Positions 2,427 to 60,439 of a DNA stretch of 64,000 bases are shown here, in pieces (the stretch's first letter is position 1; every line of letters begins with the position of its first letter). The DNA lies in assembly GCF_044324785.1 (NCBI RefSeq), contig NZ_CP172127.1, one strand, 5' to 3'. The notes under the pieces were generated by a model. It made no database searches. It saw nothing but the letters and a program-made list of their open reading frames with translations, and was not told the DNA's origin. The DNA comes from Escherichia coli. GTDB taxonomy: Bacteria; Pseudomonadota; Gammaproteobacteria; Enterobacterales; Enterobacteriaceae. The position numbers and the translations under genes are program-made.

Positions 2427-3190
2427 ACATCCTCCCGTTACTTGATAGACCCATAGCCTTCCAGAGAAGTTTTATCCGTCTTGAAATTGGCGTGACTGCC
2501 GCATTGTTTCTGTCGCAGTTGACGTACTGGACAAACAGAACAACTGACGACGGCTGGGTGTATAAAACCCAGGATGAGTGGGAAGAGGAAACAGGGCTTT
2601 CACGATACGAGCAGGAGGGCGCCCGCAAAAAACTACGTGGTCTCGGCGTCTTGCTGGAACGTAAACAGGGCTTGCCTGCCAGGCTGTACTACAAAATCGA
2701 TAATGATGTGTTGTGCCAGCTACTTACGTCCGCATACAAGGATGCGGAAAAACCACATACAGGTGAGGGGAAAACCACCAGGCCTGTACGTGGAAAACCA
2801 ACAAACATTCTTACAGAGAATACAACAGAGATTACTACAGAGATTATTACTGATGGTGAATCGGCTGACGCCGACACCCAACAACCTGCCGACCAGAGAA
2901 TAAATTATCAGGTGATACTCGATACCTATCACGAGATTTTGCCAGAGATGCCACCAGTGAAAATCCTCACTGACGGCAGAAAAAAACACCTTCGCACTTT
3001 CTGGAAAAAATTCAATTTCAATGAGTCCCGTTGGCGGGCCTATCTGGAATTTATCGGTGGCAATTGTCGCTGGATGCTGGAGGACAGGCCAAATGGCAGG
3101 GGAGGATTCTGGCGGCGTAAAAATCTTGATTATCTGATTACCGAACGCTGCTACGTTTCGGTTAAGGAAGAACGCGCAAATGATAAATAA
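2423..3190 (+). CDS. phage replication initiation / replisome organizer protein
   Basis: position immediately upstream of and overlapping DnaB-like helicase; N-terminal region resembles replication organizer proteins. Confidence 0.5.
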   Translation: MNILPLLDRPIAFQRSFIRLEIGVTAALFLSQLTYWTNRTTDDGWVYKTQDEWEEETGLSRYEQEGARKKLRGLGVLLERKQGLPARLYYKIDNDVLCQLLTSAYKDAEKPHTGEGKTTRPVRGKPTNILTENTTEITTEIITDGESADADTQQPADQRINYQVILDTYHEILPEMPPVKILTDGRKKHLRTFWKKFNFNESRWRAYLEFIGGNCRWMLEDRPNGRGGFWRRKNLDYLITERCYVSVKEERANDK

Positions 3191-4595
3191 CGCGATTGCA
3201 CTGTACAGCGTTGACGCAGAACAGGCTGTTCTGGGCTGTCTGATGCTGAATACCGACCACGACAGAACCAATGCGGTATTTGCGTTACTGAAACCGGAAA
3301 CGTTTTATATCAATGCGCATCAGGTTATCTACCGGGAGATCAAAGGATTATTTCAAGCTGATAAACCAACTGACCTGATAACACTGACCGAACTGATGGA
3401 ATCGAAGGGGCTGTATGAGCGCGTGGGGGGATTCGCATACCTGGCTGAAATGAGTAAGGCGGCGATACCGGCCTCAATGGTCAACTACGCGAAAATTGTA
3501 CGTGAAAAAGCCATTCTTCGTTACGCCGTGGAAAAGTTGAATTCTTGTCTGGAGATTATGACCCAGCCTGCAGATATGACTGCTACTGACAGGATCAGCA
3601 CCGTTCAGCAAGTGATTGGACAGGTAGCTGAACATGCCCGTACCGGGCATAAGGGCGGTTTGCGTCCGGCAAGTGAAGTCGTCGATGACTGGATAGATGA
3701 CCTTGATCGCCGTTTCAATGATCCAGCACATGCAGCCGGACTAACGCTCGGAATCGAAAGCCTTGATCGCTTAATGGCACCAAAGCAGGCGTTAAGAGGC
3801 TCATTGGTCGTTATTGGTGCCCGGCCAAAAATGGGCAAGACAGCCGCGTTTAATAAAATTGCGGTGCATTTTGCTCTGAATCATCGTTTGCCGACGCTGG
3901 TATTTAGCCTGGAAATGACTGACAGAAGTCTCATTGAACGCATGGTTGCGCAGGAAGCAAAGGTCAATTCGGAGATTTTTTATCTTGGCCCTAACGATGA
4001 ATCTGAATTGAGTCTCGCAATAGCAAAGGCGGGGGAGATTGCCGAATCCAACATGATGATTGACAGCACGGCAGGCGTAACCCTTGCGCATATTGTCGCT
4101 GAATGCCGAAAGGTTAAGCGGATGCATGGCTCGGTTGGCCTGGTGGCAATTGACTATTTGACGCTGATGAAAACCGAAGCGGCAGAACGTCGGGATATTG
4201 CGTATGGCGATATCACAACCGGTTTGAAGAACCTGGCAAAAGAGCTGGATTGTGTTGTGGTCCTGCTGACGCAACTCAACCGAAAACTTGAAGAACGAGC
4301 AGATAAGCGGCCTAACCCGAGCGACAGTAAAGATACCGGGCAGATCGAACAAGATTGCGATGTCTGGATTGGCCTCTATCGTGATGCTGTTTATAACGAA
4401 AATGCCGACCCAAATCTCATGGAAATGTTGCTACGTCTGAACCGCGAAGGACCATCGGGAACAGCCTACGCCCTGATGAAAAATGGCTCAGTTATTGATA
4501 TCAGCGATGAGGAGGTTTATCGCCGTACCAACTACCGCTCAGAAAAAAATAAACGTTATTCCCGTAGCGATAATTCTCGCACAAATGAATTTTAA
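3180..4595 (+). CDS. replicative DNA helicase, DnaB family
   Basis: Walker A GARPKMGKTAA, DnaB-like N-terminal domain, 471 aa. Confidence 0.85.
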   Translation: MINNAIALYSVDAEQAVLGCLMLNTDHDRTNAVFALLKPETFYINAHQVIYREIKGLFQADKPTDLITLTELMESKGLYERVGGFAYLAEMSKAAIPASMVNYAKIVREKAILRYAVEKLNSCLEIMTQPADMTATDRISTVQQVIGQVAEHARTGHKGGLRPASEVVDDWIDDLDRRFNDPAHAAGLTLGIESLDRLMAPKQALRGSLVVIGARPKMGKTAAFNKIAVHFALNHRLPTLVFSLEMTDRSLIERMVAQEAKVNSEIFYLGPNDESELSLAIAKAGEIAESNMMIDSTAGVTLAHIVAECRKVKRMHGSVGLVAIDYLTLMKTEAAERRDIAYGDITTGLKNLAKELDCVVVLLTQLNRKLEERADKRPNPSDSKDTGQIEQDCDVWIGLYRDAVYNENADPNLMEMLLRLNREGPSGTAYALMKNGSVIDISDEEVYRRTNYRSEKNKRYSRSDNSRTNEF

Positions 4596-43314: not shown

Positions 43315-43983
43315 CTTTATCAATGACTTATCTCCCGACTTCCCGCCTTGCTTTTCCTAAACAGAACAATCGTAGAATATTCTTGAAGGGTTAGATCGTC
43401 ACTGTTTTCTGTTCGATACTGTGACATTCAGCACTTGATTCGCTATGGATCTGACAGGAAGGTTTCGAGCGAAAATCTGCAGTTATTCAGTCGTTTTCTT
43501 ATCGCTCACCATTATTCTTTTAGACATTCATCCTATGAAACTGCCGCAAAGTTGGTGGTGGGAACTGAAGTTGCGTAGAGAAGGGGGCAATAATTGAGCC
43601 AAAAAAGGAACGCGGCCGTCAGATTAAAGCCGCGGGACAAAGTCCATAATTTCCAAGAGTTGTTGAATTTCCCAGCTTTTTTGAAAGCCTTTGTATCATA
43701 CTAACAAGTAAAAAAGGTTTAAATACCAAAATTAACCTATATTTCTGGTTAGCTTTACCATGACAGATGACTTGCTTCTGGAGACATTGGCGCTGCCAGT
43801 CTGTATTGGTGAGTTGTGTATTTATTGTTCGCCGCTTTCTCGGTTTTTTTCTACAGACATAATAAAAAAGACACGTCTCAAGCATGAGCGTGTCTGAGTT
43901 TGTTTTATTTATTTGTCTTGGTAAATTATTGTCGTTACTACCAGGCACTGTTCTGTTAAATAATTGAAGTCAGCGCAAAAAAA

Positions 43984-44634
43984 TCAATGAGACATCATCT
44001 CCTCGACCACTTCTTCGCTACTCAACTGATAGGGATAATACGTTGGCCAGTTTTCCATTTCATTTAATAAAGATTGCTGTGAATCATTACCCATAAAAAT
44101 GTGAAAATGAGATGATTTTCGTGGTGCAATTATATGATCGCTAAATTGAATATATTTAGGGGCTTTGCTTTCAGGATCTTTACATTCGAATAAGTAACGA
44201 ACGCCTTTCTTGCCTGATTTATAGGTGAGTATTTTGTATCCATCATAATCATATTTACAGGATGTTGTTTCATTATTTCTATGGAATTCAACAATGCCGT
44301 CCTCAATGCCAATCATCTCGATATCTGTCACATAACCTTTGCGATAATAATCTTTAATTTCAGCAAATGTTTTAGTTTTATCTGCATCCGCTTTCTTCTG
44401 AAAGACGGGGTCAAGTTTGCCACTTTGCAGTAAAGGATAAACGGATTGCCAGACTCCATCCCAGTCACTGAGCGTTCGGTTTTGTACATTGGCATCATCA
44501 AAAACACCATTAGCAGCTTTTTGTTCGACCTCTGTTAAGGGTTTGCCGTGTGAGTGATGACCATGCGAAAAGGCAGGAGCGCTAACAATAAAGACACCTA
44601 AAGCAACAGCCAGTTTATGAAGACGAATCGCCAA
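43984..44634 (-). CDS. zinT: zinc/cadmium-binding periplasmic protein ZinT
   Basis: 216 aa; signal peptide then HGHHSHG. Confidence 0.85.
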
Positions 44635-44670
44635 AACAGTTTCCTCCAGAGTTAATGTATATGATGTGTA

Positions 44671-44687
44671 ATGTTATATTGTAACAT
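44671..44687. promoter_or_regulatory. putative Zur box in zinT promoter
   Basis: atgtta-tattg-taacat imperfect palindrome about 40 bp upstream of zinT. Confidence 0.45.
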
Positions 44688-44821
44688 ATAACAAAATGCA
44701 ACAACTCTTAGGAGACAAGAGAATAGTTATCTCAGGTGTGCTTATCTATCTTATTGAAATAAAATAAATTATGTCGATGATTTGAGGTTGATGACAAACG
44801 AAACATAACTTGATGTGATCT

Positions 44822-44858
44822 GCGTAGGCCGGATAGGGCGCTCGCGCCGCATCCGGCA
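44822..44858. repeat. REP (repetitive extragenic palindromic) element
   Basis: gcgtaggccggatagggcgctcgcgccgcatccggca. Confidence 0.6.
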
Positions 44859-44890
44859 GGGATAACGCGTACTTTGTCGGCAATATGAAG

Positions 44891-45526
44891 TTATACAGAT
44901 AATTTGTTGTGAACCTGCTTGCGTAACCGGTTAAAAAGGGAACGCAACTTCTTATACCGTAAGGCTAAAAGCAGTACAGCCAGCCCAGCGTAGATGAGTG
45001 GCTGCGGTGAAATAATCTTCACTGACCACAGATAATGTACTGGGGCAAGGATCGCGACAAGATAGACGAAGTTATGCAACTGTTGCCAGTTTTTGCCGAG
45101 TTTTCGCTGCATCGCCTGGGTTGAAGTGAACGCTAAAGCAAGCAAAATTATCCAGCTGATAATACCTAACGTTAAATAAGGCCGGGTAATTAACTCCTTG
45201 CCTAATAACGCCAGATTATTCACGCCCAGCTCCAGTAATGCGTAACTGGTTAAATGCAGTGTCGCCCAGGCAAAGCACCATAAGCCTAACAGGCGGCGAG
45301 TGCGTATCAATAACGGCTGTTTTGCGTAGCGTGCCAGAGGTGTGATTAACAAGGTCGCCAGCAAAAATTTCAGTGCAGTGCGACCAGTAAAATGCTGAAT
45401 ATCTTTCACCGGATCGGCACCCAATCCACCGTGATTAATCGCCCAGACCAGCCAGAGAAACGGCAACAATCCGGCAAGATGCAGGCAAACTTTCAGCCAT
45501 GTCACCTGTTTTGCTGTCAGACGCAT
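44891..45526 (-). CDS. msrQ: methionine sulfoxide reductase heme-binding subunit MsrQ
   Basis: 211-aa polytopic membrane protein adjacent to msrP. Confidence 0.9.
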
Positions 45527-46537
<1,011 letters not shown>

Positions 46538-46639
46538 TCACACTTTTTTGTCTTTAGCCAGCAAGAGCCGTTTACTGTTAATCTGTCAGGGAGTCACCTC
46601 CCTAACAGTAGCAGAGATCTGCTTTTACATATTTATGCA

Positions 46640-47053
46640 TTAACTGCCACGATAGGTTGAATACCCATATTGGCTAAGTAATAAAGGCACATGATAATGC
46701 TCGTTCACTTTATTAATATGAAATTCAACGGGGATCTCAGGGAAGAAACTTTCAAGATTTTGTTTCTTGAAATAGTCCCCGGTTTTAAATACGACACGGT
46801 AATCGCCCGTAGTTGCAGTTTGCTCGGGCCACAGTGCCTTAATTCGTCCATCCTTATCTGTTTTGGCGGTATTAAGTTGTAACCAGCCGTTATCCGCTTT
46901 CTTTTCAAGAGTGACTGTCACGTCGGCAGCGGGTTTTCCTGTTTGCTGGTTCAAAATGTGCACGCTAAGAATGTTTTGTTGTGCAGCATAGACCAAAGAA
47001 GGTAATGAAAATGCAGCCGTTACTACGGAGAGTACTAAATAACGCTTTAACAT
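46640..47053 (-). CDS. hiuH: 5-hydroxyisourate hydrolase (transthyretin-like)
   Basis: 137 aa; C-terminal YRGS. Confidence 0.85.
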
Positions 47054-47185
47054 GTTTATATCCTTGTCATGTGAATGAGTTTTGAGGATAGCGAAAAAGC
47101 GTCCAGGGTAACCTTACAGAAGCATTACAATTTTGTAATGAACCAGGCTGTTTCTATAACATATGATTTATGGCATATTATTTTC

Positions 47186-47857
47186 ATGAAGATTCTACTT
47201 ATTGAAGATAATCAAAGGACCCAGGAATGGGTAACGCAGGGGCTTTCCGAAGCGGGTTATGTCATTGATGCCGTTACTGATGGCAGAGATGGGCTTTATC
47301 TTGCGCTGAAGGATGATTATGCATTGATCATTCTGGATATTATGCTTCCGGGTATGGATGGCTGGCAGATCTTACAAACGTTAAGAACGGCAAAGCAAAC
47401 TCCTGTTATTTGCCTTACTGCAAGAGATTCTGTCGATGACAGAGTCAGAGGGCTGGACAGTGGGGCAAATGATTATCTGGTAAAACCTTTTTCATTTTCT
47501 GAGTTGCTGGCAAGGGTTCGGGCACAATTAAGGCAACATCACGCTTTGAATTCAACATTAGAAATCAGCGGCTTAAGAATGGACTCTGTTAGTCAAAGTG
47601 TGAGCAGGGACAATATCAGTATTACACTGACGCGCAAGGAGTTTCAGTTACTTTGGCTACTGGCCTCCAGAGCTGGCGAAATTATACCCAGAACGGTTAT
47701 TGCGAGTGAAATTTGGGGAATCAACTTTGATAGTGATACCAATACGGTGGATGTCGCCATTCGCAGGCTCCGCGCAAAAGTTGATGATCCTTTTCCTGAA
47801 AAGCTAATCGCCACAATCCGGGGGATGGGCTATTCATTCGTAGCGGTAAAAAAATAA
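47186..47857 (+). CDS. hprR: two-component response regulator HprR
   Basis: OmpR-family receiver plus winged helix; start taken at MKILLIEDN. Confidence 0.85.
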   Translation: MKILLIEDNQRTQEWVTQGLSEAGYVIDAVTDGRDGLYLALKDDYALIILDIMLPGMDGWQILQTLRTAKQTPVICLTARDSVDDRVRGLDSGANDYLVKPFSFSELLARVRAQLRQHHALNSTLEISGLRMDSVSQSVSRDNISITLTRKEFQLLWLLASRAGEIIPRTVIASEIWGINFDSDTNTVDVAIRRLRAKVDDPFPEKLIATIRGMGYSFVAVKK

Positions 47858-49215
47858 TGAAAAGATTATCTATAACCGTCCGTTTAACCTTGCTTTTTAT
47901 ATTGCTGCTGTCTGTTGCTGGCGCTGGAATTGTCTGGACTCTCTATAATGGCCTGGCAAGTGAGTTGAAATGGCGCGATGATACAACACTCATTAACCGG
48001 ACAGCGCAGATCAAGCAGTTGTTAATTGATGGGGTAAATCCAGATACGTTACCTGTGTACTTTAACCGGATGATGGATGTTAGTCAGGATATCTTGATCA
48101 TTCATGGTGATGGCATCAATAAAATTGTTAACCGGACGAATGTCAGTGATGACATGTTAAATAACATACCTGCTACTGAGACAATCAGCGCAGCTGGCAT
48201 TTACAGAAGCATTATTAATGACACTGAGATAGATGCTTTACGAATTAATATTGATGAAGTTTCGCCATCATTAACGGTTACTGTGGCTAAATTGGCTTCA
48301 GCCAGACATAACATGCTTGAACAGTATAAAATTAATAGCATTATAATTTGCATTGTCGCCATTATACTGTGCTCAGTATTAAGTCCGTTGTTAATCAGAA
48401 CGGGGTTACGAGAGATCAAAAAGTTGAGTGGTGTAACGGAAGCGCTGAATTATAACGATAGCCGAGAGCCTGTTGAGGTTAGCGCATTACCGAGAGAACT
48501 AAAACCTCTTGGGCAGGCGTTGAATAAAATGCACCAAGCCTTAGTCAAAGATTTTGAACGCCTAAGTCAATTTGCTGACGATCTCGCTCATGAACTTAGA
48601 ACGCCAATTAATGCATTACTGGGTCAGAATCAGGTTACGCTCAGTCAAACCAGAAGTATCGCTGAATATCAAAAAACAATTGCCGGAAACATTGAAGAGC
48701 TGGAAAATATTTCGCGGTTAACAGAGAACATACTGTTTCTTGCCAGGGCAGATAAAAACAATGTTTTGGTGAAACTGGATTCGCTTTCTCTCAATAAGGA
48801 AGTCGAAAATTTGTTGGACTATCTTGAATACCTTTCAGACGAGAAAGAGATTTGCTTTAAGGTCGAGTGCAATCAGCAAATCTTTGCGGATAAAATTTTA
48901 CTGCAACGAATGTTATCGAATCTTATTGTTAACGCTATTCGATATTCACCAGAAAAATCGCGCATTCAGATAACCAGTTTTCTTGATGCCAACGGCTCTC
49001 TTAATATTGATATCGCCAGCCCTGGAACGATAATTAATGAGCCTGAAAAACTCTTCCGTAGATTTTGGCGGGGAGATAATTCGCGTCATTCCGTAGGTCA
49101 GGGACTTGGTCTTTCTTTAGTCAAAGCGATTGCCGAATTGCATGGGGGAAGTGCTACGTATCACTATCTCAATAAGCATAACGTGTTCCGAATTACGTTA
49201 CCGCAAAGAAATTAA
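47857..49215 (+). CDS. hprS: sensor histidine kinase HprS
   Basis: two TM helices, H-box ELRTPIN, ATPase motifs; overlaps hprR stop. Confidence 0.85.
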   Translation: MKRLSITVRLTLLFILLLSVAGAGIVWTLYNGLASELKWRDDTTLINRTAQIKQLLIDGVNPDTLPVYFNRMMDVSQDILIIHGDGINKIVNRTNVSDDMLNNIPATETISAAGIYRSIINDTEIDALRINIDEVSPSLTVTVAKLASARHNMLEQYKINSIIICIVAIILCSVLSPLLIRTGLREIKKLSGVTEALNYNDSREPVEVSALPRELKPLGQALNKMHQALVKDFERLSQFADDLAHELRTPINALLGQNQVTLSQTRSIAEYQKTIAGNIEELENISRLTENILFLARADKNNVLVKLDSLSLNKEVENLLDYLEYLSDEKEICFKVECNQQIFADKILLQRMLSNLIVNAIRYSPEKSRIQITSFLDANGSLNIDIASPGTIINEPEKLFRRFWRGDNSRHSVGQGLGLSLVKAIAELHGGSATYHYLNKHNVFRITLPQRN

Positions 49216-49322
49216 TATATGTCTTCAGTACGCCTTAAATTAACCATGAAAAAACGCAGCTACGTCGTGAGTATTAACGTGGCTGCGATTGATTATGCGC
49301 TTACATTACAATGTAACAGGGA

Positions 49323-50174
49323 TTAACTCGAGTAAGCGGCCAGCATTTCCTGCGCCGCCAGTTTACCCAACGCATTCGCTGCGAAAGGACTGTCGCCGGT
49401 GAGAACTTTACGGTCCTTATGTACTCGTCCGGTGATGTCGTCATTAATGATGTTCATGCCCATTTTCTTCAGCTCTTCGCCGAAGTACCAGGTGAGATGA
49501 CCCGGCATATAGCCTATCTCTGGCGTTTGTTTGTCTGCGGCGTCTGGGAATGCGCAAATGGAATAACCATTCAGTGGGTTATCGCCGTGGCGAAGCGCCA
49601 GAAAAGCCGCCGGGCCGTGGCAAAGGGAGATAACAAAACGGTCATTTTTGATTGCCCACTGTAAAGCGGCAGCTACGTCCTGGCTTTCAGGTAAACCAAT
49701 AAGTGCGCCATGACCACCAGGAACAAAGATTGCTGCATATTCGCTGTCAGCGTTGAGGCTGGCGACAACATCCGCGAGTTTCTTCGGATTGCGGAACAAC
49801 GATTTATGCTGCTCAAAGAATGGCATTACTTTTTCATCTTTGTGCGGCATAGCCCAGTATTCAAACTTGGTCATCAGACCGGAAATGGTCGCCACTTCGA
49901 ATTCGAAACCTGCAGCATGGAGATGATACAACGGCAGCAACGTTTCAATCGGATGGTTACCGGTCGAGAACAGTTTTCCGTTATCGGTCGGCAAATAACG
50001 TTCGTCCGCGGCGATCACCAGAATTTTATGTTTACCGCGATACGGTTTTGGATAGTCCACGCCATCAAGATCAGAGACAGGACTGGTATATTGGCTAAGC
50101 GAATATTCTGAAGGGAAGAATGCATTATCTTCAGCAATATCGACCTGCGGATTTTTACTTGTTTGAACAGTCAT
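49323..50174 (-). CDS. hchA: Hsp31 glyoxalase/chaperone HchA
   Basis: 283 aa DJ-1/PfpI family. Confidence 0.9.
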   Translation of the reverse strand: MTVQTSKNPQVDIAEDNAFFPSEYSLSQYTSPVSDLDGVDYPKPYRGKHKILVIAADERYLPTDNGKLFSTGNHPIETLLPLYHLHAAGFEFEVATISGLMTKFEYWAMPHKDEKVMPFFEQHKSLFRNPKKLADVVASLNADSEYAAIFVPGGHGALIGLPESQDVAAALQWAIKNDRFVISLCHGPAAFLALRHGDNPLNGYSICAFPDAADKQTPEIGYMPGHLTWYFGEELKKMGMNIINDDITGRVHKDRKVLTGDSPFAANALGKLAAQEMLAAYSS

Positions 50175-50765
50175 AGTGTATTCCTTATTGTTGCTTAGTT
50201 AGGGTAGTCACTATATTTGCGACTGAGCTGGTCGCTATTTTTAACCAGGCTGGAAAATTGAGTCAATATATCGAAAGCGGTAGTCGGCGGGTGTAAGTAT
50301 GTAATGATGATGCTGCACTGGTGTTGAATATTATTCACGCCAAATTTTCCTTATTGAGCTACGTCGTCGCAAGTGGCCTCAATGATTTTAGACCATTATC
50401 AAAGGTACGGGGCGGCGGGGAGAGATTTAGTTATGTGGAATATTATGGTACTGATGAATATTTATATCCCGGATTGGCAGAGAAAAAGCTTTTTTCATGC
50501 ACTATTTTTGCAAATATTTCTATATGGGAGGCGGTTTTGTTGCGGATTAATTCATAAAGAAATGCATTTGGGTGTTGGCTGGAAGAGACGCTAGTAGATT
50601 TTATTGAGCCAGGAGGGGCGGGGTAATGTGCTGTATCGATATGCTTTGGCAATTGCGTGTGCCGCAGATGGAGATGAAATGCCAATAAAAAAGCCTGAGT
50701 TCGATGAGGGACGAACTCAGGCTATTGTTATGTTTTACAGTAACACGCCGCAGCGCGTTGGCTGA

Positions 50766-51881
50766 TTAGAACTGGTAGACGATACCAACTGCAAACTGGT
50801 CATCAGCTGCTGCGCCAGTAATGGCGGCGTCATCTTTATCCAGCATGTTGAATTTGTATGCAGTATAAACGTTCATGTTCTTATTGAAGTAGTACCAGGT
50901 ACCAACTTCAATGTAGTTCACACGGTCAGCGTCAACATATCTATGTCCAGGTACACCTTTGATATCTTTACCTTTAGAATACACATAACCTAAGGACGGA
51001 CGCAGACCAAAGTCGAATTGATACTGAACAACCGCTTCAAAGTTCTGGGTTTCATTGATAAGTTGATCACGCATTATTGTATTGCCTTCTCGATCGGCAA
51101 CACCTGTATCAATAGAACCCGGAGTCATATTACGAGTTTCACCGTACATTACAGCTGCGTAGACATTGTTCGCGTCATACTTTGCAGCCAATGACCACAG
51201 TTCAGCATTTGAACCGTTTCCATCGGCAACTTGATCGTTGGTGCGATCAGATTTGCTATATGCACCAACGATACCAAAACCATTGATGTTATAGTCTACA
51301 GACAACGCATAGCCGTCACCATTTTGTTTCTTAGTGCTACGGTTGCTGTTTTTGCCTTGGTACTGAATCGCAAAATCAAGACCATCAACCAGGCCAAAGA
51401 AATCATAGTTACGGTAGGTTGCAACACCGTTGGTACGACCATTCATGAAGTTGTCAGCGGAAGCCCAGGAATCGCCACCCCATTCAACTAACATATCGGT
51501 ATAAGCTGCGGCATCATAAGCAACACCGTAGTTACGGCCATAGTCAAATGATCCTAACTCGTTATATTTCAAACCGGCGAAGGTTAAACGGGTTTTTTCC
51601 TGGTTTTCACCTTCAGGTTTGCTGGCGTCGAGGTTGTATTCAAACTGACCGAAACCAGTCAGTTCGCTGGTGATTTGGGTTTCACCTTTAACACCGAAAC
51701 GAGCATAGGAGGTATCTTCGTTTTCGCTGTTATTATCATCAGTATTTGACCAGATGCGTTCGCCAACCATCTTGCCGTAGAAATCAACTTTATTGCCATC
51801 TTTATTATAAATTTCAGCCGCATTTGCTGCGCCAGCAACTAATAACGCCGGGACCAGCATTGCCAGAACTTTTCTTTTCAT
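50766..51881 (-). CDS. yedS: OmpC-family outer membrane porin (yedS-like, apparently intact)
   Basis: signal peptide [22 protein letters not shown]-terminal VGIVYQF; uninterrupted ORF. Confidence 0.75.
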
Positions 51882-52447
51882 TATGTATTCCCTTGTGATT
51901 ATAATCTTCATGAATATATCAATAAGTGCCGTTATCCAAAAAAAAGCACATTTGGATACTATTCTATGAAGTTCATTTTATTTTAAGGATTACATGTAAC
52001 AAATGTATTTAAAAGATTTCAAAATGTTTCTAATCTATTTAATATAATTCAGAATTATGAATTCTAGATATAAATATTCATGATAATTATGAATATATAT
52101 CAATATGTTATGAGTTGATTGGAAAGATAGGAAGTATCAATGATTGCGGCGCTAAACGGCTGATGTGATCACGCGCACATTAATGAAGGCATAAAAAAAA
52201 GCCGGCATCATGCCGGCCCAAAAAATATAAACAAGACGATAAAAGGCTAATAACGGGGTTATCATGACACAGAAATCAAAAAAGGTATAATTGAATTCGC
52301 TGCTAATATATTGTTTAGGTGAATTAATAAAACCATTACCATAGATAATAATAAATCTTCATTGCTGTTTTTCCGGTAATTATTGCCGTTGCGCAAAAAT
52401 TATCTATTTGTTCAAAAAATGATTGAGTCTTGACTGGCTCATCCAAT

Positions 52448-52813
52448 GTGGAAAAATGTGACTTTTATCACATAATAGTACTAAGTCTGAATTTTCCGGG
52501 TTATCTCAAAATGGAATACGGTTCGACAAAGATGGAAGAGAGACTCTCTCGCAGCCCTGGCGGCAAATTGGCTTTGTGGGCTTTCTATACATGGTGTGGC
52601 TATTTTGTCTGGGCAATGGCGCGTTACATCTGGGTGATGAGCCGGATCCCCGAAGCCCCCGTGTCGGGATTTGAAAGCGATTTAGGCTCTACCGCGGGAA
52701 AGTGGTTAGGGGCACTGGTCGGCTTTTTATTTATGGCACTGGTCGGGGCATTGTTAGGCAGCATTGCCTGGTACACCCGACCTCGTCCCGCACGTAGCAG
52801 ACGCTATGAATAA
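52448..52813 (+). CDS. yedR: inner membrane protein YedR
   Basis: small two-TM protein; GTG start assumed (121 aa). Confidence 0.6.
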   Translation: MEKCDFYHIIVLSLNFPGYLKMEYGSTKMEERLSRSPGGKLALWAFYTWCGYFVWAMARYIWVMSRIPEAPVSGFESDLGSTAGKWLGALVGFLFMALVGALLGSIAWYTRPRPARSRRYE

Positions 52814-52852
52814 AAACTGCTAAGGTTGCGACTCTTTGGCAACGGAGCGCGT

Positions 52853-53548
52853 ATGGACGTACAACACTGGCAGGCACAGTTCGAAAACTGGTTGAAAAAC
52901 CATCATCAGCACCAGGACGCGGCCCATGACGTATGTCATTTTCGCCGTGTCTGGGCTACGGCACAGAAGCTGGCGGCAGATGACGATGTCGATATGCTGG
53001 TGATTTTAACCGCCTGTTATTTTCACGATATTGTGATCCTGGCGAAAAATCATCCACAACGGCAGCGTTCTTCAATCCTGGCGGCAGAAGAAACGCGTCG
53101 CCTGCTCCGTGAAGAGTTCGTGCAATTTCCGGCGGAGAAAATTGAGGCCGTTTGTCATGCCATTGCCGCGCACAGTTTCAGCGCGCAAATCGCCCCCTTA
53201 ACAACGGAAGCTAAAATCGTCCAGGATGCGGATCGGCTGGAAGCCCTGGGGGCGATTGGCCTGGCGCGCGTGTTTGCCGTTTCAGGGGCATTGGGCGTGG
53301 CGCTGTTTGATGGCGAAGATCCGTTCGCACAGCATCGCCCGCTGGATGATAAACGCTACGCGCTGGATCATTTCCAGACTAAGTTGCTGAAGCTACCGCA
53401 AACCATGCAAACCGCAAGAGGCAAGCAGCTGGCGCAGCACAACGCGCAATTTTTAGTCGAGTTTATGGCGAAGCTCAGTGCCGAACTGGCGGGGGAGAAT
53501 GAAGGTGTCGATCACAAGGTGATAGATACGTTTTCACCCGTGGGCTGA
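52853..53548 (+). CDS. yedJ: HD-domain phosphohydrolase YedJ
   Basis: HD motif; ATG with GGAG RBS. Confidence 0.75.
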
Positions 53549-53614
53549 GCGCGTGGCCCTAAATGGCTGTAATTATGTTAACCTGTCGGCCATCTCAGAT
53601 GGCCGGTTAAATCT

Positions 53615-55033
53615 ATGCAGGAAAATATATCAGTAACCGATTCATACAGCACCGGGAATGCCGCACAGGCAATGCTGGAGAAACTGCTGCAAATTTATGA
53701 TGTTAAAACGCTGGTGGCGCAGCTTAATGGTGTGGGTGAGAATCACTGGAGCGCGGCAATTTTAAAACGTGCGCTGGCGAATGACTCGGCATGGCACCGT
53801 TTAAGTGAGAAAGAGTTCGCCCATCTGCAAACGTTGTTACCCAAACCACCGGCACATCATCCGCATTATGCGTTTCGCTTTATCGATCTATTTGCCGGAA
53901 TTGGCGGCATCCGTCGCGGTTTTGAATCGATTGGCGGACAGTGCGTCTTTACCAGCGAATGGAACAAACATGCGGTTCGCACTTATAAAGCCAACCATTA
54001 TTGCGATCCGGCGACGCATCATTTTAATGAAGATATCCGCGACATCACCCTCAGCCATAAAGACGGCGTGAGTGATGAGTCGGCGGCAGAACATATTCGT
54101 CAACACATTCCTGAACACGATGTATTACTGGCCGGTTTTCCTTGTCAGCCATTTTCGCTGGCTGGCGTATCGAAAAAGAACTCGCTCGGGCGGGCGCACG
54201 GTTTTGCCTGCGATACCCAGGGCACGCTGTTCTTTGATGTGGTGCGCATTATCGACGCGCGTCGTCCGGCGATGTTTGTGCTCGAAAACGTCAAAAACCT
54301 GAAAAGTCACGATAAAGGAAAAACGTTCCGCATCATCATGCAGACGCTGGACGAACTGGGCTATGACGTGGCTGATGCAGAAGATAACGGGCCAGACGAT
54401 CCGAAAATCATCGACGGCAAACATTTTCTGCCGCAGCACCGTGAACGCATCGTGCTGGTGGGTTTTCGTCGCGATCTGAATCTGAAAGCCGATTTTACCC
54501 TGCGTGATATCAGCGAATGTTTTCCTGCGCAGCGAGTGACGCTGGCCCAGCTGCTGGACCCGATGGTCGAGGCGAAATATATCCTGACGCCGGTGCTGTG
54601 GAAGTACCTCTATCGATATGCGAAAAAACATCAGGCGCGCGGTAACGGCTTCGGTTATGGAATGGTTTATCCGAACAATCCGCAAAGCGTCACGCGTACG
54701 TTGTCTGCGCGTTATTACAAAGATGGCGCAGAAATTTTAATCGATCGCGGCTGGGATATGGCAACGGGTGAGAAAGACTTTGACGATCCGCTGAATCAGC
54801 AACATCGCCCACGTCGGTTAACGCCTCGGGAATGCGCGCGTTTAATGGGGTTTGAAGCGCCGGGAGAAGCGAAATTCCGCATTCCGGTTTCGGACACTCA
54901 GGCCTATCGCCAGTTCGGTAACTCGGTGGTCGTACCGGTCTTTGCCGCGGTGGCAAAACTGCTTGAGCCAAAAATCAAACAGGCGGTGGCGTTGCGTCAG
55001 CAAGAGGCACAACATGGCCGACGTTCACGATAA
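53615..55033 (+). CDS. dcm: DNA-cytosine methyltransferase Dcm
   Basis: 472 aa; FAGIGG and PCQ motifs. Confidence 0.9.
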
Positions 55034-55484
55034 GGCCACACGCAGCAAAAATATGCGCGCGATTGCCACGCGTGATACGGCGATTGAGAAGCGCCTCGCC
55101 AGTTTGTTAACCGGGCAGGGACTGGCGTTTCGCGTTCAGGACGCGGATCTCCCCGGACGCCCGGATTTTGTCGTTGATGAATATCGCTGCGTGATATTTA
55201 CCCACGGCTGCTTCTGGCACCATCATCACTGCTATCTGTTTAAAGTGCCTGCGACTCGAACCGGGTTCTGGCTGGAGAAGATAGGTAAAAATGTTGAGCG
55301 CGATCGCCGCGATATCAGTCGCTTGCAGGAACTCGGCTGGCGCGTATTGATTGTCTGGGAGTGTGCGTTACGTGGGCGCGAGAAGCTGACGGATGAAGCG
55401 CTTAGCGAGCGTCTGGAAGAGTGGATCTGCGGCGAAGGAGCCAGCGCGCAGATCGACACGCAGGGGATTCATTTACTCGCTTGA
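55014..55484 (+). CDS. vsr: very-short-patch repair endonuclease Vsr
   Basis: [28 protein letters not shown]; starts inside the 3' end of dcm in another frame. Confidence 0.9.
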
Positions 55485-56393
55485 TGCGTCCTGAATAACG
55501 GGCGCAACTACGGGTTTGGCCGGGAAGAGATATTTTCCCAACGTGACCAGTACCACCGCGAAGACAATCACGCCGAGCGCCAGCCATTCAATCTTCGACA
55601 GCGTCTCTCCGCCCAGTCCCGTACCCAGCAAGACCGCGACCACAGGGTTAACGTAGGCGTAGCTGGTGGCGAGAGCCGGACTGACGTTGCGGATTAAATA
55701 CATATAAGCGTTAATGGCGATAATCGAACCAAACAGCGCCAGATAGCCGACCGCAAGGAAGCCTGAAAGGGAAGGGAGCGCCGTCAGTTTTTCACCCGCA
55801 ATCATCGACGCGATCATTAACACCACGCCTGCCGCAAGCATCTCAATCGCACCCGCCATCATCCCTACAGGTAAGGTAATGCGCGAGCCATAAACTGAGC
55901 CAAACGCCCAGCTAATCGAGCCGATTAAAATCAGAATCGCGCCCCACGGATTGCCGCTTAAATTTCCACCGCTATTGAGCATGATGATTCCGGCAAGTCC
56001 AATGGCGATACCCACCCATTCCAGTTTGCGCGTTTTAATGCCAAACAGGCGGCTGAAGCACAGGGTAAAGAGGGGCACGGTTGCAACCACTACGGCGGCG
56101 ATGCCGGAAGGAACATTTTGATGTTCGGCAACCGTTACCATGCCATTACCGACAGCCAGCAATAACAGGCCAATCAGCGCGGCATTGAGCAGCGGACGTA
56201 GCGGGGGGAGCTTGTGTCCGCGCAGTAGCAAAAATGCCAGCAATAAAATACCGGCTGCCAGGAATCGCACGCCCGCCATCATTAACGGCGGCCAGCTTTC
56301 CACGCCAATCCGAATGACAAAATAGGTTGAGCCCCAAATGATATACAACGCAAACAGCGCGCCAAAAAGCGGTAACAACTGGCGGAAACGCAT
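55473..56393 (-). CDS. yedA: EamA-family (DMT) transporter YedA
   Basis: 306-aa 10-TM protein. Confidence 0.8.
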   Translation of the reverse strand: MRFRQLLPLFGALFALYIIWGSTYFVIRIGVESWPPLMMAGVRFLAAGILLLAFLLLRGHKLPPLRPLLNAALIGLLLLAVGNGMVTVAEHQNVPSGIAAVVVATVPLFTLCFSRLFGIKTRKLEWVGIAIGLAGIIMLNSGGNLSGNPWGAILILIGSISWAFGSVYGSRITLPVGMMAGAIEMLAAGVVLMIASMIAGEKLTALPSLSGFLAVGYLALFGSIIAINAYMYLIRNVSPALATSYAYVNPVVAVLLGTGLGGETLSKIEWLALGVIVFAVVLVTLGKYLFPAKPVVAPVIQDASSE

Positions 56394-56565
56394 AATCCCT
56401 CACGGTGGAAATAAAAAGGTGGTTCATAGTAAACGTGAAAATCATTCTGCTGGCGAGAGATATAATTGCACTTGATTGTTAAAAAAATGTTGACCTGTGA
56501 AGCAAGTATCAGAGCTGCCGTTTTTGCTTCATACTTACACCCTTCAACAATAAAAATGAGAGGGA

Positions 56566-57483
56566 ATGCTTTTGGCCGGGAGTAGTTTACTGACGTTGCT
56601 CGATGATATCGCCACACTGCTGGACGATATTTCCGTGATGGGCAAACTGGCGGCGAAGAAAACCGCCGGTGTATTAGGGGATGACTTATCGCTCAATGCG
56701 CAACAAGTTTCAGGCGTGCGGGCCAACCGGGAACTTCCCGTGGTCTGGGGCGTGGCGAAAGGATCGCTGATCAATAAAGTGATTCTGGTGCCGCTGGCGC
56801 TGATCATCAGTGCGTTTATCCCGTGGGCGATTACGCCACTGTTGATGATTGGCGGCGCGTTTCTCTGCTTTGAAGGGGTAGAGAAAGTGCTGCATATGCT
56901 GGAGGCGCGTAAACATAAAGAAGATCCGGCGCAGAGTCAGCAGCGTCTGGAGAAGCTGGCGGCGCAGGATCCGCTGAAGTTTGAAAAGGACAAAATAAAA
57001 GGGGCGATTCGTACCGATTTTATATTGTCTGCGGAAATCGTCGCCATCACGCTGGGGATTGTGGCAGAAGCGCCGTTGCTTAATCAGGTGCTGGTGCTTT
57101 CAGGCATCGCGCTGGTAGTGACCGTGGGCGTCTACGGTCTGGTAGGGGTTATCGTTAAGATTGATGACCTGGGGTATTGGTTGGCGGAAAAATCCAGCGC
57201 GCTGATGCAGGCATTAGGTAAAGGGTTATTGATTATCGCGCCCTGGTTGATGAAAGCGTTATCGATTGTCGGCACGCTGGCGATGTTCCTCGTCGGCGGC
57301 GGGATTGTGGTACATGGTATTGCGCCGCTGCATCACGCCATTGAACATTTCGCCGGGCAGCAAAGTGCAGTGGTGGCGATGATATTACCGACTGTTTTAA
57401 ATCTGATTCTTGGATTTATCATCGGCGGCATCGTGGTGCTGGGAGTGAAAGCAGTAGCGAAAATGCGCGGTCAGGCACATTAA
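56566..57483 (+). CDS. yedI: inner membrane protein YedI (DUF808)
   Basis: 305 aa. Confidence 0.75.
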
Positions 57484-57561
57484 TACTCGCACTGGCTATT
57501 ATGCAAAATTCGCCATCTTCAACTAAGGTGAACAAGTTTCACTCGAAAAAAGGAGGCGAGT

Positions 57562-57744
57562 ATGAGCTTTATGGTTAGTGAGGAAGTTACGGTTAAAGAG
57601 GGCGGCCCGCGGATGATTGTCACCGGATACTCCAGCGGTATGGTTGAGTGTCGTTGGTATGACGGTTACGGGGTCAAGCGGGAAGCTTTTCATGAAACCG
57701 AGCTTGTTCCAGGGGAGGGGAGTCGTCCTGCGGAAGAAGTTTGA
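57562..57744 (+). CDS. yodC: DUF2158 small protein YodC
   Basis: 60 aa MSFMVSEEVTVKEGGPRMIVTGYSSGMVECRWYDGYGVKREAFHETELVPG. Confidence 0.8.
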   Translation: MSFMVSEEVTVKEGGPRMIVTGYSSGMVECRWYDGYGVKREAFHETELVPGEGSRPAEEV

Positions 57745-57914
57745 AAGGGTATCATTAACACCAGGCCGGATCACATCCGGCCTGGTGTGCCAATGCCTGC
57801 AATGAATGATAGTCGCGTCTTATCATGCCACCATTATAAAATTATCGCTGTTTTGCGGTACGTTATCGCCGGGTTATGCCAGAATCATAAAAAAGCAGGT
57901 TGGGAGTCGTCAGG

Positions 57915-60439
<2,525 letters not shown>

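Follow-up and report, generated by a model that had tools for sequence, protein, structure and literature searches.

Between drpB and hchA, Escherichia coli K-12 MG1655 carries a broken porin gene, yedS (b4496), a pseudogene of 1193 nt whose reconstructed product is 397 aa long. The same slot in the genome studied here had been predicted, from its sequence alone, to hold an intact yedS-type porin gene of the OmpC family, and the K-12 disruption on which this prediction drew is present as an in-frame TAG and a frameshift. The locus raises the question of whether the gene is K-12 yedS in undamaged form or another porin, and whether an intact copy is a peculiarity of the strain. We analysed the gene within the window, a stretch of 64,000 nt from contig NZ_CP172127.1 of assembly GCF_044324785.1. 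Our analysis points with good confidence to a complete classical porin of the trimeric type, a 16-stranded, OmpK35-like general-diffusion porin that sits in a slot of exchangeable cassettes.

The porin gene is complete, with a ribosome-binding site, a signal peptide and a terminator (Table 1). A six-frame ORF listing gives a single long minus-strand ORF at 50766..51911, which is 381 aa from its first ATG; from the in-frame ATG at 51881, the start also used by an identical RefSeq CDS, translation yields 371 aa with no internal stops. The uninterrupted 371-aa frame predicted for 50766-51881 was recovered at exactly these coordinates, on the minus strand. Removal of the signal peptide is predicted to leave a mature porin of 350 residues that begins with AEIYNK and ends in ...VGIVYQF, an aromatic motif typical of classical porins, and the predicted signal peptide and C-terminal porin motif were both found, in alignments of porin precursors and in the ...VYQF end. 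The terminator-like hairpin lies 43 nt past the porin stop and is conserved in all allele classes described below. On one side the gene is flanked by hchA (49323-50174, minus strand), and on the other by rseX and drpB/yedR (ending at 52813, plus strand), followed by yedJ and dcm; the predicted position between hchA and yedR holds, with rseX also lying in that interval.

Table 1. Features of the porin locus in the window, with positions counted from the first letter of the 64,000-nt stretch
Feature	Position	Strand	Description and source
Porin CDS	50766..51881	-	371 codons + TAA stop (50766-50768), 1116 nt; ORF list and translation
Signal-peptide codons	51819..51881	-	21 residues, cleavage expected after ANA; aligned with OmpC/OmpF/OmpN precursors
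Shine-Dalgarno-like AAGGGA	51889..51894	-	7 nt upstream of ATG 51881; read from the sequence
Intrinsic terminator-like hairpin	50692..50723	-	12-bp stem with 7 GC pairs, then TTTTTATT; terminator scan
Hypervariable cassette	50781..51812	-	Mature-protein part that differs between classes; binned identity, first and last mismatch
Predicted surface loop L6 codons	51051..51125	-	Residues ~253-277; region identity and indel table on AlphaFold2 secondary structure
Sigma-70-like site TTGTTA-16-TAAAAT	51975..52002	-	~95 nt upstream of start; consensus match only
rseX small RNA gene	52194..52283	-	Rfam RF01401, 97.8 bits (gathering score 50), full length; own terminator
CRP-like site gaTGTGAtcacgcGCACAtta	52162..52182		TGTGA-N6-GCACA, between rseX and the porin promoter region

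The simplest explanation of such a gene would be that it is the K-12 yedS allele minus its stop codon and frameshift, with which the shared chromosomal slot and the identical 5′UTR and signal peptide agree. Alignment against K-12 yedS and other alleles rules this explanation out, and we give it next to no probability. The window CDS has only ~72% nucleotide identity to K-12 yedS, with BLASTN aligning just three segments at 70-73%, and the mature porin shares 58% amino acid identity with repaired K-12 YedS, no closer than OmpF is to OmpC. The hypervariable cassette is separated by 483 differences from K-12 yedS and by none from the gene of the enterotoxigenic (ETEC) strain H10407. The motif in loop L3 (VEWGGD versus PEFGGD) and the loop lengths differ as well, and true intact alleles of the K-12 family are 395-404 aa long and pass the OmpC subfamily HMM. 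The answer to whether the window gene is a yedS depends on what is meant by the name. Defined by its slot and its regulatory and export module (rseX, promoter, 5′UTR and signal peptide, through to hchA), yedS includes the window gene; defined by the lineage of the mature protein it does not, as the window porin falls in a different clade of the porin tree from K-12 YedS. The term ‘yedS-type’ is therefore right as to the slot, the broken K-12 copy and the intact copy in the window, and wrong as to the mature protein, which is of a different lineage.

As a find, the window gene is largely ordinary, being a common allele already annotated in RefSeq. Its CDS is 100% identical at the nucleotide level to that of the RefSeq porin WP_000824355.1 (ETEC H10407, NCTC86 and many other genomes), and at least 1000 contigs encode exactly this protein, which is named ‘porin’, ‘outer membrane pore protein F’ or ‘Outer membrane protein N’ there. 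Sampling annotated complete E. coli genomes, we distinguished at least five allele classes in the slot, which belong to two porin lineages and without exception lie between drpB and hchA. Class 1 is the window allele (371 aa, WP_000824355.1). Class 2 (WP_000824362, 357 aa) has ~85% nucleotide identity to class 1 and is a mosaic, 99% identical at its 5′ end, while class 3 (WP_000824389, 352 aa), found in Nissle 1917, has ~70%. Class 4 (WP_000824375, 387 aa) is annotated as ‘porin OmpC’, and the K-12 family makes up the fifth class. Estimated from identity and coverage bands in 5,426 complete E. coli genomes, class 1 is present in ~900 (~17%; 799 of the 5,426 at ≥99% identity), class 2 in ~744 (~14%), class 3 in ~1,100 (~20%), the K-12 family in ~1,660 (~31%) and class 4 in ~600 (~11%). 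Annotation of the slot is inconsistent, with ‘porin’, ‘porin OmpC’, ‘OmpN’, ‘OmpF’ and ‘S1’ all in use, and genomes with K-12-family alleles appear, as an effect of annotation, to carry two ompC genes.

The suggestion that an intact copy marks out this particular strain did not survive the comparison, as an intact porin is the usual state of the locus in the genomes sampled. Four of the five genomes outside K-12 that we sampled for a K-12-family allele have it intact (NCTC9699, UID2309220033, S42 and N3). Most of the sampled slot copies are intact, and K-12 is among the exceptions. Disruption does recur: the slot copy of F8797, the one O157:H7 genome sampled, is independently frameshifted, IS1 and IS2 insertions disrupt the slot porin in some strains, and the class-1 copy of E. 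marmotae has a divergent C-terminus and has lost its C-terminal strand. Since the K-12 and O157:H7 disruptions are independent of each other, and given the insertions and the loss in E. marmotae, the locus is evidently dispensable.

With a score of 396.1 bits (gathering score 23.7, E = 2e-118), the Pfam family PF00267 (Porin_1) matches the window protein from residue 27 to residue 371, on model positions 1-337. In this broad sense the predicted membership of the OmpC family stands; in the narrow sense it fails, as the score against the NCBIfam OmpC subfamily model NF007841 is 417.4 bits for a cutoff of 484. The cutoffs of the OmpF equivalog NF007446 (449.9 bits, cutoff 583) and the PhoE equivalog NF007544 (414.4 bits, cutoff 599) are likewise missed, and with all three curated porin models missed RefSeq gives the generic name ‘porin’. 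The same OmpC model is passed by the K-12-family (535 bits) and class-4 (520 bits) alleles from the same slot. Among PDB sequences, the best match is Klebsiella OmpK35 at 486 bits, with a chain of 5o78 at 439, E. coli OmpF at 399 and OmpC at ~313. The 5o78 chain goes by two names, being phosphoporin PhoE in the PDB sequence search and Omp35 of Enterobacter aerogenes in the library used by Foldseek.

From 36 relatives we built an AlphaFold2 model with a mean pLDDT of 80.5, which predicts 16 strands and a loop L3 that spans 37 residues and includes short helices. With this predicted model as query, Foldseek returned OmpK35 (5o77) as the top match at 62% identity and a TM of 0.82/0.90, and gave a probability of 1.00 to OmpK35, OmpF and OmpC structures. 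Part of L3 (residues 141-148) has a pLDDT below 50, and because the model is only moderately confident there, our statements on pore size rest on sequence conservation. The OmpF constriction residues K16, R42, R82, R132, D113 and E117 are all conserved, corresponding in the numbering of the window precursor to K37, R61, R98 and R149 opposite D129 and E133, and OmpF Y102, Y106 and K80 are conserved likewise. In L3 the motif reads VEWGGD, like that of OmpK35, where OmpF, OmpC, PhoE, OmpN and K-12 YedS have PEFGGD. Because of these conserved OmpF constriction residues and the OmpK35 motif, the gene would be expected to encode an OmpF/OmpK35-like general-diffusion channel. The most class-specific segment of the porin is the predicted surface loop L6: that of class 1 has 11-15 residues more than its counterparts in classes 2-4 and in the orthologues from E. 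fergusonii, Citrobacter and Enterobacter, and exceeds that of a K-12-family allele by 5 residues.

Judging by sequence relationships and synteny, the window lineage is a widespread resident porin of the drpB slot across genera, since relatives in several genera occupy the same place. Among the best 120 matches, the closest relative outside E. coli is that of E. marmotae, at 93% over 355 residues and with the same long L6. It is followed by E. fergusonii (82-84%), by Citrobacter and Enterobacter hormaechei (75-77%) and by a relative from the Klebsiella oxytoca group (~69%) that lies at the drpB slot. The Escherichia, Citrobacter, Enterobacter and Klebsiella relatives all adjoin drpB and/or yedJ-dcm-vsr-yedA. 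A neighbour-joining tree places classes 1-3 with these syntenic orthologues and OmpK35, and places K-12 YedS together with class 4 beside OmpN and OmpC. The slot of E. fergusonii holds two adjacent porin genes, and we considered that the E. coli classes might be alternative survivors of a tandem pair of this kind. This idea was rejected, as the signal peptide of the E. fergusonii porin B differs and its identity to the K-12 family is only 63-64%.

Synonymous distances (Nei-Gojobori) from class 1 are 0.49 to class 2, 1.19 to class 3 and 1.2-1.7, which is saturated, to the K-12 family and class 4. The last range is as deep as that between genera, going by E. coli-Salmonella distances. When class 1 is paired with classes 2 and 3 or with the porin of E. 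fergusonii, Citrobacter or Enterobacter, the same method gives dN/dS ratios of 0.07-0.19. The porin protein is under purifying selection, and such low ratios over dS values of 0.5-1.6 indicate that this selection is long-term, going beyond mere recent spread. Distances between E. coli classes as large as between genera, together with a porin GC content of ~43-44% against ~52% in the flanks, would also suit a recent import of the class-1 cassette from another genus by xenologous replacement. We find that origin quite improbable: the closest relatives outside E. coli are themselves Escherichia (E. marmotae and E. fergusonii), other genera reach at most ~77% with no donor above 90% outside Escherichia among the 120 best matches, the relatives are all at the syntenic locus, and low GC is common to all porin classes here. 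Together, the 16 strands of the predicted model, the conserved pore residues and the dN/dS values argue for a functional general-diffusion porin, and make it plausible that the strain has, as originally predicted, an extra functional porin.

How a single slot can hold such different porins becomes apparent from the boundaries of the variable segment. Aligning the drpB-hchA interval from six strains and binning identity, we found that identity to K-12 stays at 94-100% as far as the signal-peptide codons, drops to 34-74% in the mature codons and is back at 97% just after the stop. Across classes, the flanks, 5′UTR and signal peptide are 93-100% identical, and the cassette falls to 31-76%. The five classes are identical from at least 30 nt 5′ of the ATG to CDS nucleotide +69 (window 51813), a stretch whose coding part comprises the signal peptide, identical in DNA in all five classes compared, and two further codons; at the other end, the last differences between classes lie at ~50781-50807, 15-40 nt ahead of the stop. 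The nearest flanking background is that of strain N3, with 100% identity to the window across hchA and across the promoter and signal-peptide region, yet the N3 slot holds an intact 395-aa porin of the K-12 family, a class unlike that of the window. Over the cassette the window matches H10407 at 100%, and in the flanks the two diverge by up to 20% in bins of 100 nt. N3-like flanks around an H10407-identical cassette indicate that cassettes are exchanged by recombination. The same class also occurs across strains of different phylogroups: H10407 and NCTC86 carry class 1, as do ST131 and an O2:K1:H7 avian pathogenic (APEC) strain, these two at 99.2-99.9%, whereas Nissle 1917 has class 3 and K-12 a class of its own.

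Differences between the classes are unevenly distributed over the protein. With strands and loops taken from the secondary structure of the AlphaFold2 model, identity to class 1 in strands and loops, respectively, is 96 and 78% for class 2, 92 and 71% for E. fergusonii, 88 and 63% for Citrobacter and 74 and 50% for class 3, and class-specific indels fall in the predicted external loops L4, L5, L6 and L7. Divergence is not all loop-driven, because the membrane strands too differ between the two porin lineages, at only 62-63% identity. Found side by side at intermediate frequencies, the classes are in part common to E. marmotae. On these grounds we tentatively put forward, as a possibility, that the drpB-hchA slot holds ancient classes of porin cassettes from an OmpK35-like and an OmpN/OmpC-like lineage, exchanged by recombination, in a pattern that fits long-term balancing or frequency-dependent selection acting on a surface protein. 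A description of the allele classes or cassette pattern of the slot was not found in the searchable literature, where coverage of yedS is sparse.

A related explanation would make the locus mainly a variable surface target, such as a phage or colicin receptor, an antigen or an adhesin, with solute diffusion secondary. The concentration of differences in predicted external loops, with the class-specific indels of L4-L7, would be natural for such a target, as would the persistence of several old classes at intermediate frequencies (~17, 14, 20, 31 and 11%) and the swapping of the cassette between genetic backgrounds. For the window porin, however, a receptor function is purely putative, the strand differences between lineages mean that loops do not account for all of the divergence, and a mostly silent gene would mean limited exposure to phages or immunity. 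We consider it rather unlikely that this is the main role of the locus, and retain the general-diffusion porin in an exchangeable slot as the preferred reading.

Upstream of the gene, the sigma-70-like site falls within a tract of 20-33% GC (51800-52100), and promoter scanning found 9 sites where 7.6 were expected, no better than chance frequency. The promoter region is conserved in all classes, with 93% mean column identity and only isolated differences over the last ~200 nt. Directly upstream on the same strand lies rseX, annotated at the same place in K-12; a second Rfam match overlapping it, Burkholderia Bp1_781, was discarded as noise (20.8 bits against a gathering score of 80). A Footprint-seq preprint (PMC12871828) includes the K-12 counterpart of the CRP-like site, at 2033766, among its in-vitro CRP footprints and assigns it to yedS. 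The small RNA gene, the CRP-like site, the 5′UTR and the signal peptide are common to all classes.

Warner et al. (2013) reportedly found that an expressed yedS affected carbapenem susceptibility and that its regulation depended on MicF. For the window porin, direct pairing of MicF with the 5′ region is unsupported by duplex energy: RNAduplex gave -11.1 kcal/mol against positions -90..+30, no better than shuffled sequences (mean -12.6), where the positive control of MicF with ompF gave -27.4 kcal/mol (z = -5.3). Pairing of RseX with the porin 5′ region was not significant, nor was that of its ompC control.

The window porin may be silent under most conditions, as the 200 nt upstream are 20% GC and the adjacent rseX is reported to be repressed by H-NS (PMC8313858). 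In Salmonella, OmpS1 is silenced by H-NS and StpA, de-repressed by LeuO and activated by OmpR, and mutants of this ‘quiescent’ porin are attenuated (PMC4264507), so that quiescence in the laboratory does not equal uselessness. By analogy, the window porin would be expected to be kept low by H-NS-type silencing and to be de-repressed conditionally. It could also be that the gene is intact but cryptic, permanently silenced and with its frame kept by recent spread, so that decay lies ahead as in K-12. Its extremely AT-rich upstream region and H-NS-repressed neighbour are in keeping with this, as are the independent disruptions in K-12, O157:H7, the IS-insertion strains and E. marmotae; K-12 yedS has moreover been described as normally not translated. 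We nonetheless judge permanent silence unlikely, given dN/dS values of 0.07-0.19 over synonymous distances of 0.5-1.6, the occupation of the slot by an intact porin in several genera, and the conservation of pore-lining residues and the C-terminal signal. Further evidence against it comes from the attenuation of OmpS1 mutants (PMC4264507) and from the detection in a surface proteome of a YedS-related porin not of the K-12 type, described as ‘50% homologous to K-12 YedS’ and 8-fold higher in O26:H11 than in EDL933 (PMC9731836). A conditionally expressed minor porin remains our preferred reading.

For such a porin, we propose a precursor that would be exported via Sec with its 21-residue signal peptide, the C-terminal ...YQF signal then directing insertion into the outer membrane. 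The water-filled channel would be narrowed by L3, with a basic ladder (K16/R42/R82/R132) facing acidic D113/E117, and small hydrophilic solutes including beta-lactams would probably pass much as they do through OmpF and OmpK35. At the level of the locus, an invariant module of promoter region, 5′UTR and signal peptide may drive any of at least five deeply diverged mature porins, and homologous recombination within the flanks, which are conserved, would exchange their cassettes among strains. We infer that the porin is made, at a level kept low by H-NS-type silencing, and that the diversity of its surface loops may be driven by phages, colicins or immunity.

For the window itself little changes, as it holds a standard annotated porin with identical copies in hundreds of genomes; the deeply polymorphic, cassette-like slot is a more interesting by-product than the gene. 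Because ‘yedS’ in the literature means the K-12 lineage, results linking YedS to carbapenem entry are not automatically transferable to class-1 strains. If this minor porin were switched on upon loss of OmpC and OmpF, beta-lactams would be expected to regain a way in through such a channel of the OmpF/OmpK35 type, and the allele class might then matter for resistance phenotypes and phage host range. More generally, if the proposed picture is true and the porin is expressed in vivo or upon loss of OmpC and OmpF, the class would set susceptibility to phages and colicins and the residual permeability to beta-lactams and carbapenems.

Among known systems, Salmonella OmpS1 is comparable by analogy only, as a minor porin that is preceded by very AT-rich DNA and is probably silent in laboratory culture. 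The label ‘outer membrane protein S1’ in some sources belongs to K-12-family proteins of the slot, unlike the window class, and Salmonella is absent among the best 120 matches of a homology search with the K-12 family. With K-12 YedS, the window porin shares the slot between rseX/drpB and hchA, the 5′UTR, start context, signal peptide, 3′ end and downstream terminator. K-12 YedS differs in clustering with OmpN and OmpC, in its PEFGGD L3 and long L4/L5 insertions, and in having intact relatives that pass the NCBI OmpC subfamily model, which the window porin fails. OmpF, OmpC, PhoE and OmpN of E. coli have in common with it the Pfam family, 16-strand architecture, type of signal peptide, constriction residues and C-terminal Phe, but are only 55-61% identical and have another locus and regulatory region; K-12 ompF, for instance, adjoins aspC, a locus different from that of the window.

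The syntenic porins of other genera, also named generically ‘porin’ in RefSeq, carry VEWGGD in those examined (E. fergusonii, E. marmotae, Citrobacter and Enterobacter); they differ in a shorter L6, except in E. marmotae, and in a right-hand neighbour that varies between genera. OmpK35 (5o77, 9hn1) is the nearest characterised relative. Its gene lies at the ompF locus, unlike the slot of the window porin, and its identity to the window porin, whose L6 is longer, is only 63-65%. The two share VEWGGD, the basic ladder, the acidic L3 residues and a K at OmpF position 80, and neither passes the OmpF equivalog model. The window porin thus counts as OmpK35-type by resemblance, the group having no curated model.

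Among the alleles of the yedS slot, the class 2 gene (357 aa; 2501-3574 of comparison locus L003) is 99% identical to the class 1 porin gene of the window (50766-51881) over its first ~270 nt, but just 60-76% identical around the regions encoding the predicted surface loops L6 and L7. Set against class 1, class 2 is an intragenic mosaic, which indicates recombination within the porin gene, besides that at the gene borders. At the border with hchA, the intergenic region (window 50269-50764) is 86-97% identical to strain N3, which carries a K-12-family porin, and 92-97% identical to ETEC strain H10407, both values lying below those of the adjoining sequence on either side. This region may derive from a third source, or it may be the junction at which the cassette was exchanged by recombination. 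A small hypothetical ORF is annotated here in some genomes.

Of 5,426 complete E. coli genomes, strain N3 also comes closest to the window in the core genes that flank the slot (99.4% for window 43900-50200 and 98.8% for 52830-60400), with all other genomes at 98.8% or less; the host background of the window is without a close counterpart in this set. The myovirus-type prophage elsewhere in the window (see table) is matched by Escherichia phage vB_EcoM-705R4 at ~92% identity across 78% of the 24-kb query, and yodB/zinT adjoin one of its ends.

In E. fergusonii GCA_002965935.1 (L013:5001-7772), the slot holds a tandem pair of porin genes: one (361 aa) is class-1/2-like, the other (369 aa) differs in its signal peptide. 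A TrkH-family gene lies between the pair and hchA. The distance from porin to hchA is greater in the E. marmotae-type contig L025, where a 380-aa class 1 copy (3001-4143) shows 93% identity across 355 residues, long L6 included. Beyond these, an unrelated 25-residue tail replaces the last strand and terminal Phe, so this copy is probably frameshifted. The copy in E. coli O157:H7 F8797 (L018) is flagged as frameshifted, by a lesion independent of those in K-12. In this and other genomes, PGAP labels K-12-family and class 4 alleles of the slot ‘ompC: porin OmpC’, and each such genome therefore has two genes called ompC.

Coordinates of features annotated in the window
Feature	Position	Strand	Description
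Myovirus-type prophage	~18000-42650		terminase, portal, tail sheath, tail protein X, VgrG/Pvc8-family protein, tail fibre
CRP-like site	52162-52182		gaTGTGAtcacgcGCACAtta; between rseX and porin promoter region; sequence likeness
rseX small RNA gene	52194-52283	-	Rfam RF01401, 97.8 bits

The porin start lies ~310 nt downstream of rseX on the same strand. The K-12 counterpart of the CRP-like site, ggTGTGAtcaggcGCACAtta at 2033766, is listed among in-vitro CRP footprints in a 2026 preprint (PMC12871828), with yedS as its assigned gene. Within its 5′ third, the rseX of the window departs from that of K-12 at several positions, reading TTTTTTGATTTC... where K-12 has TTTTTATTATTC..., and GATAACCCCG in place of GATGCTTCCG.
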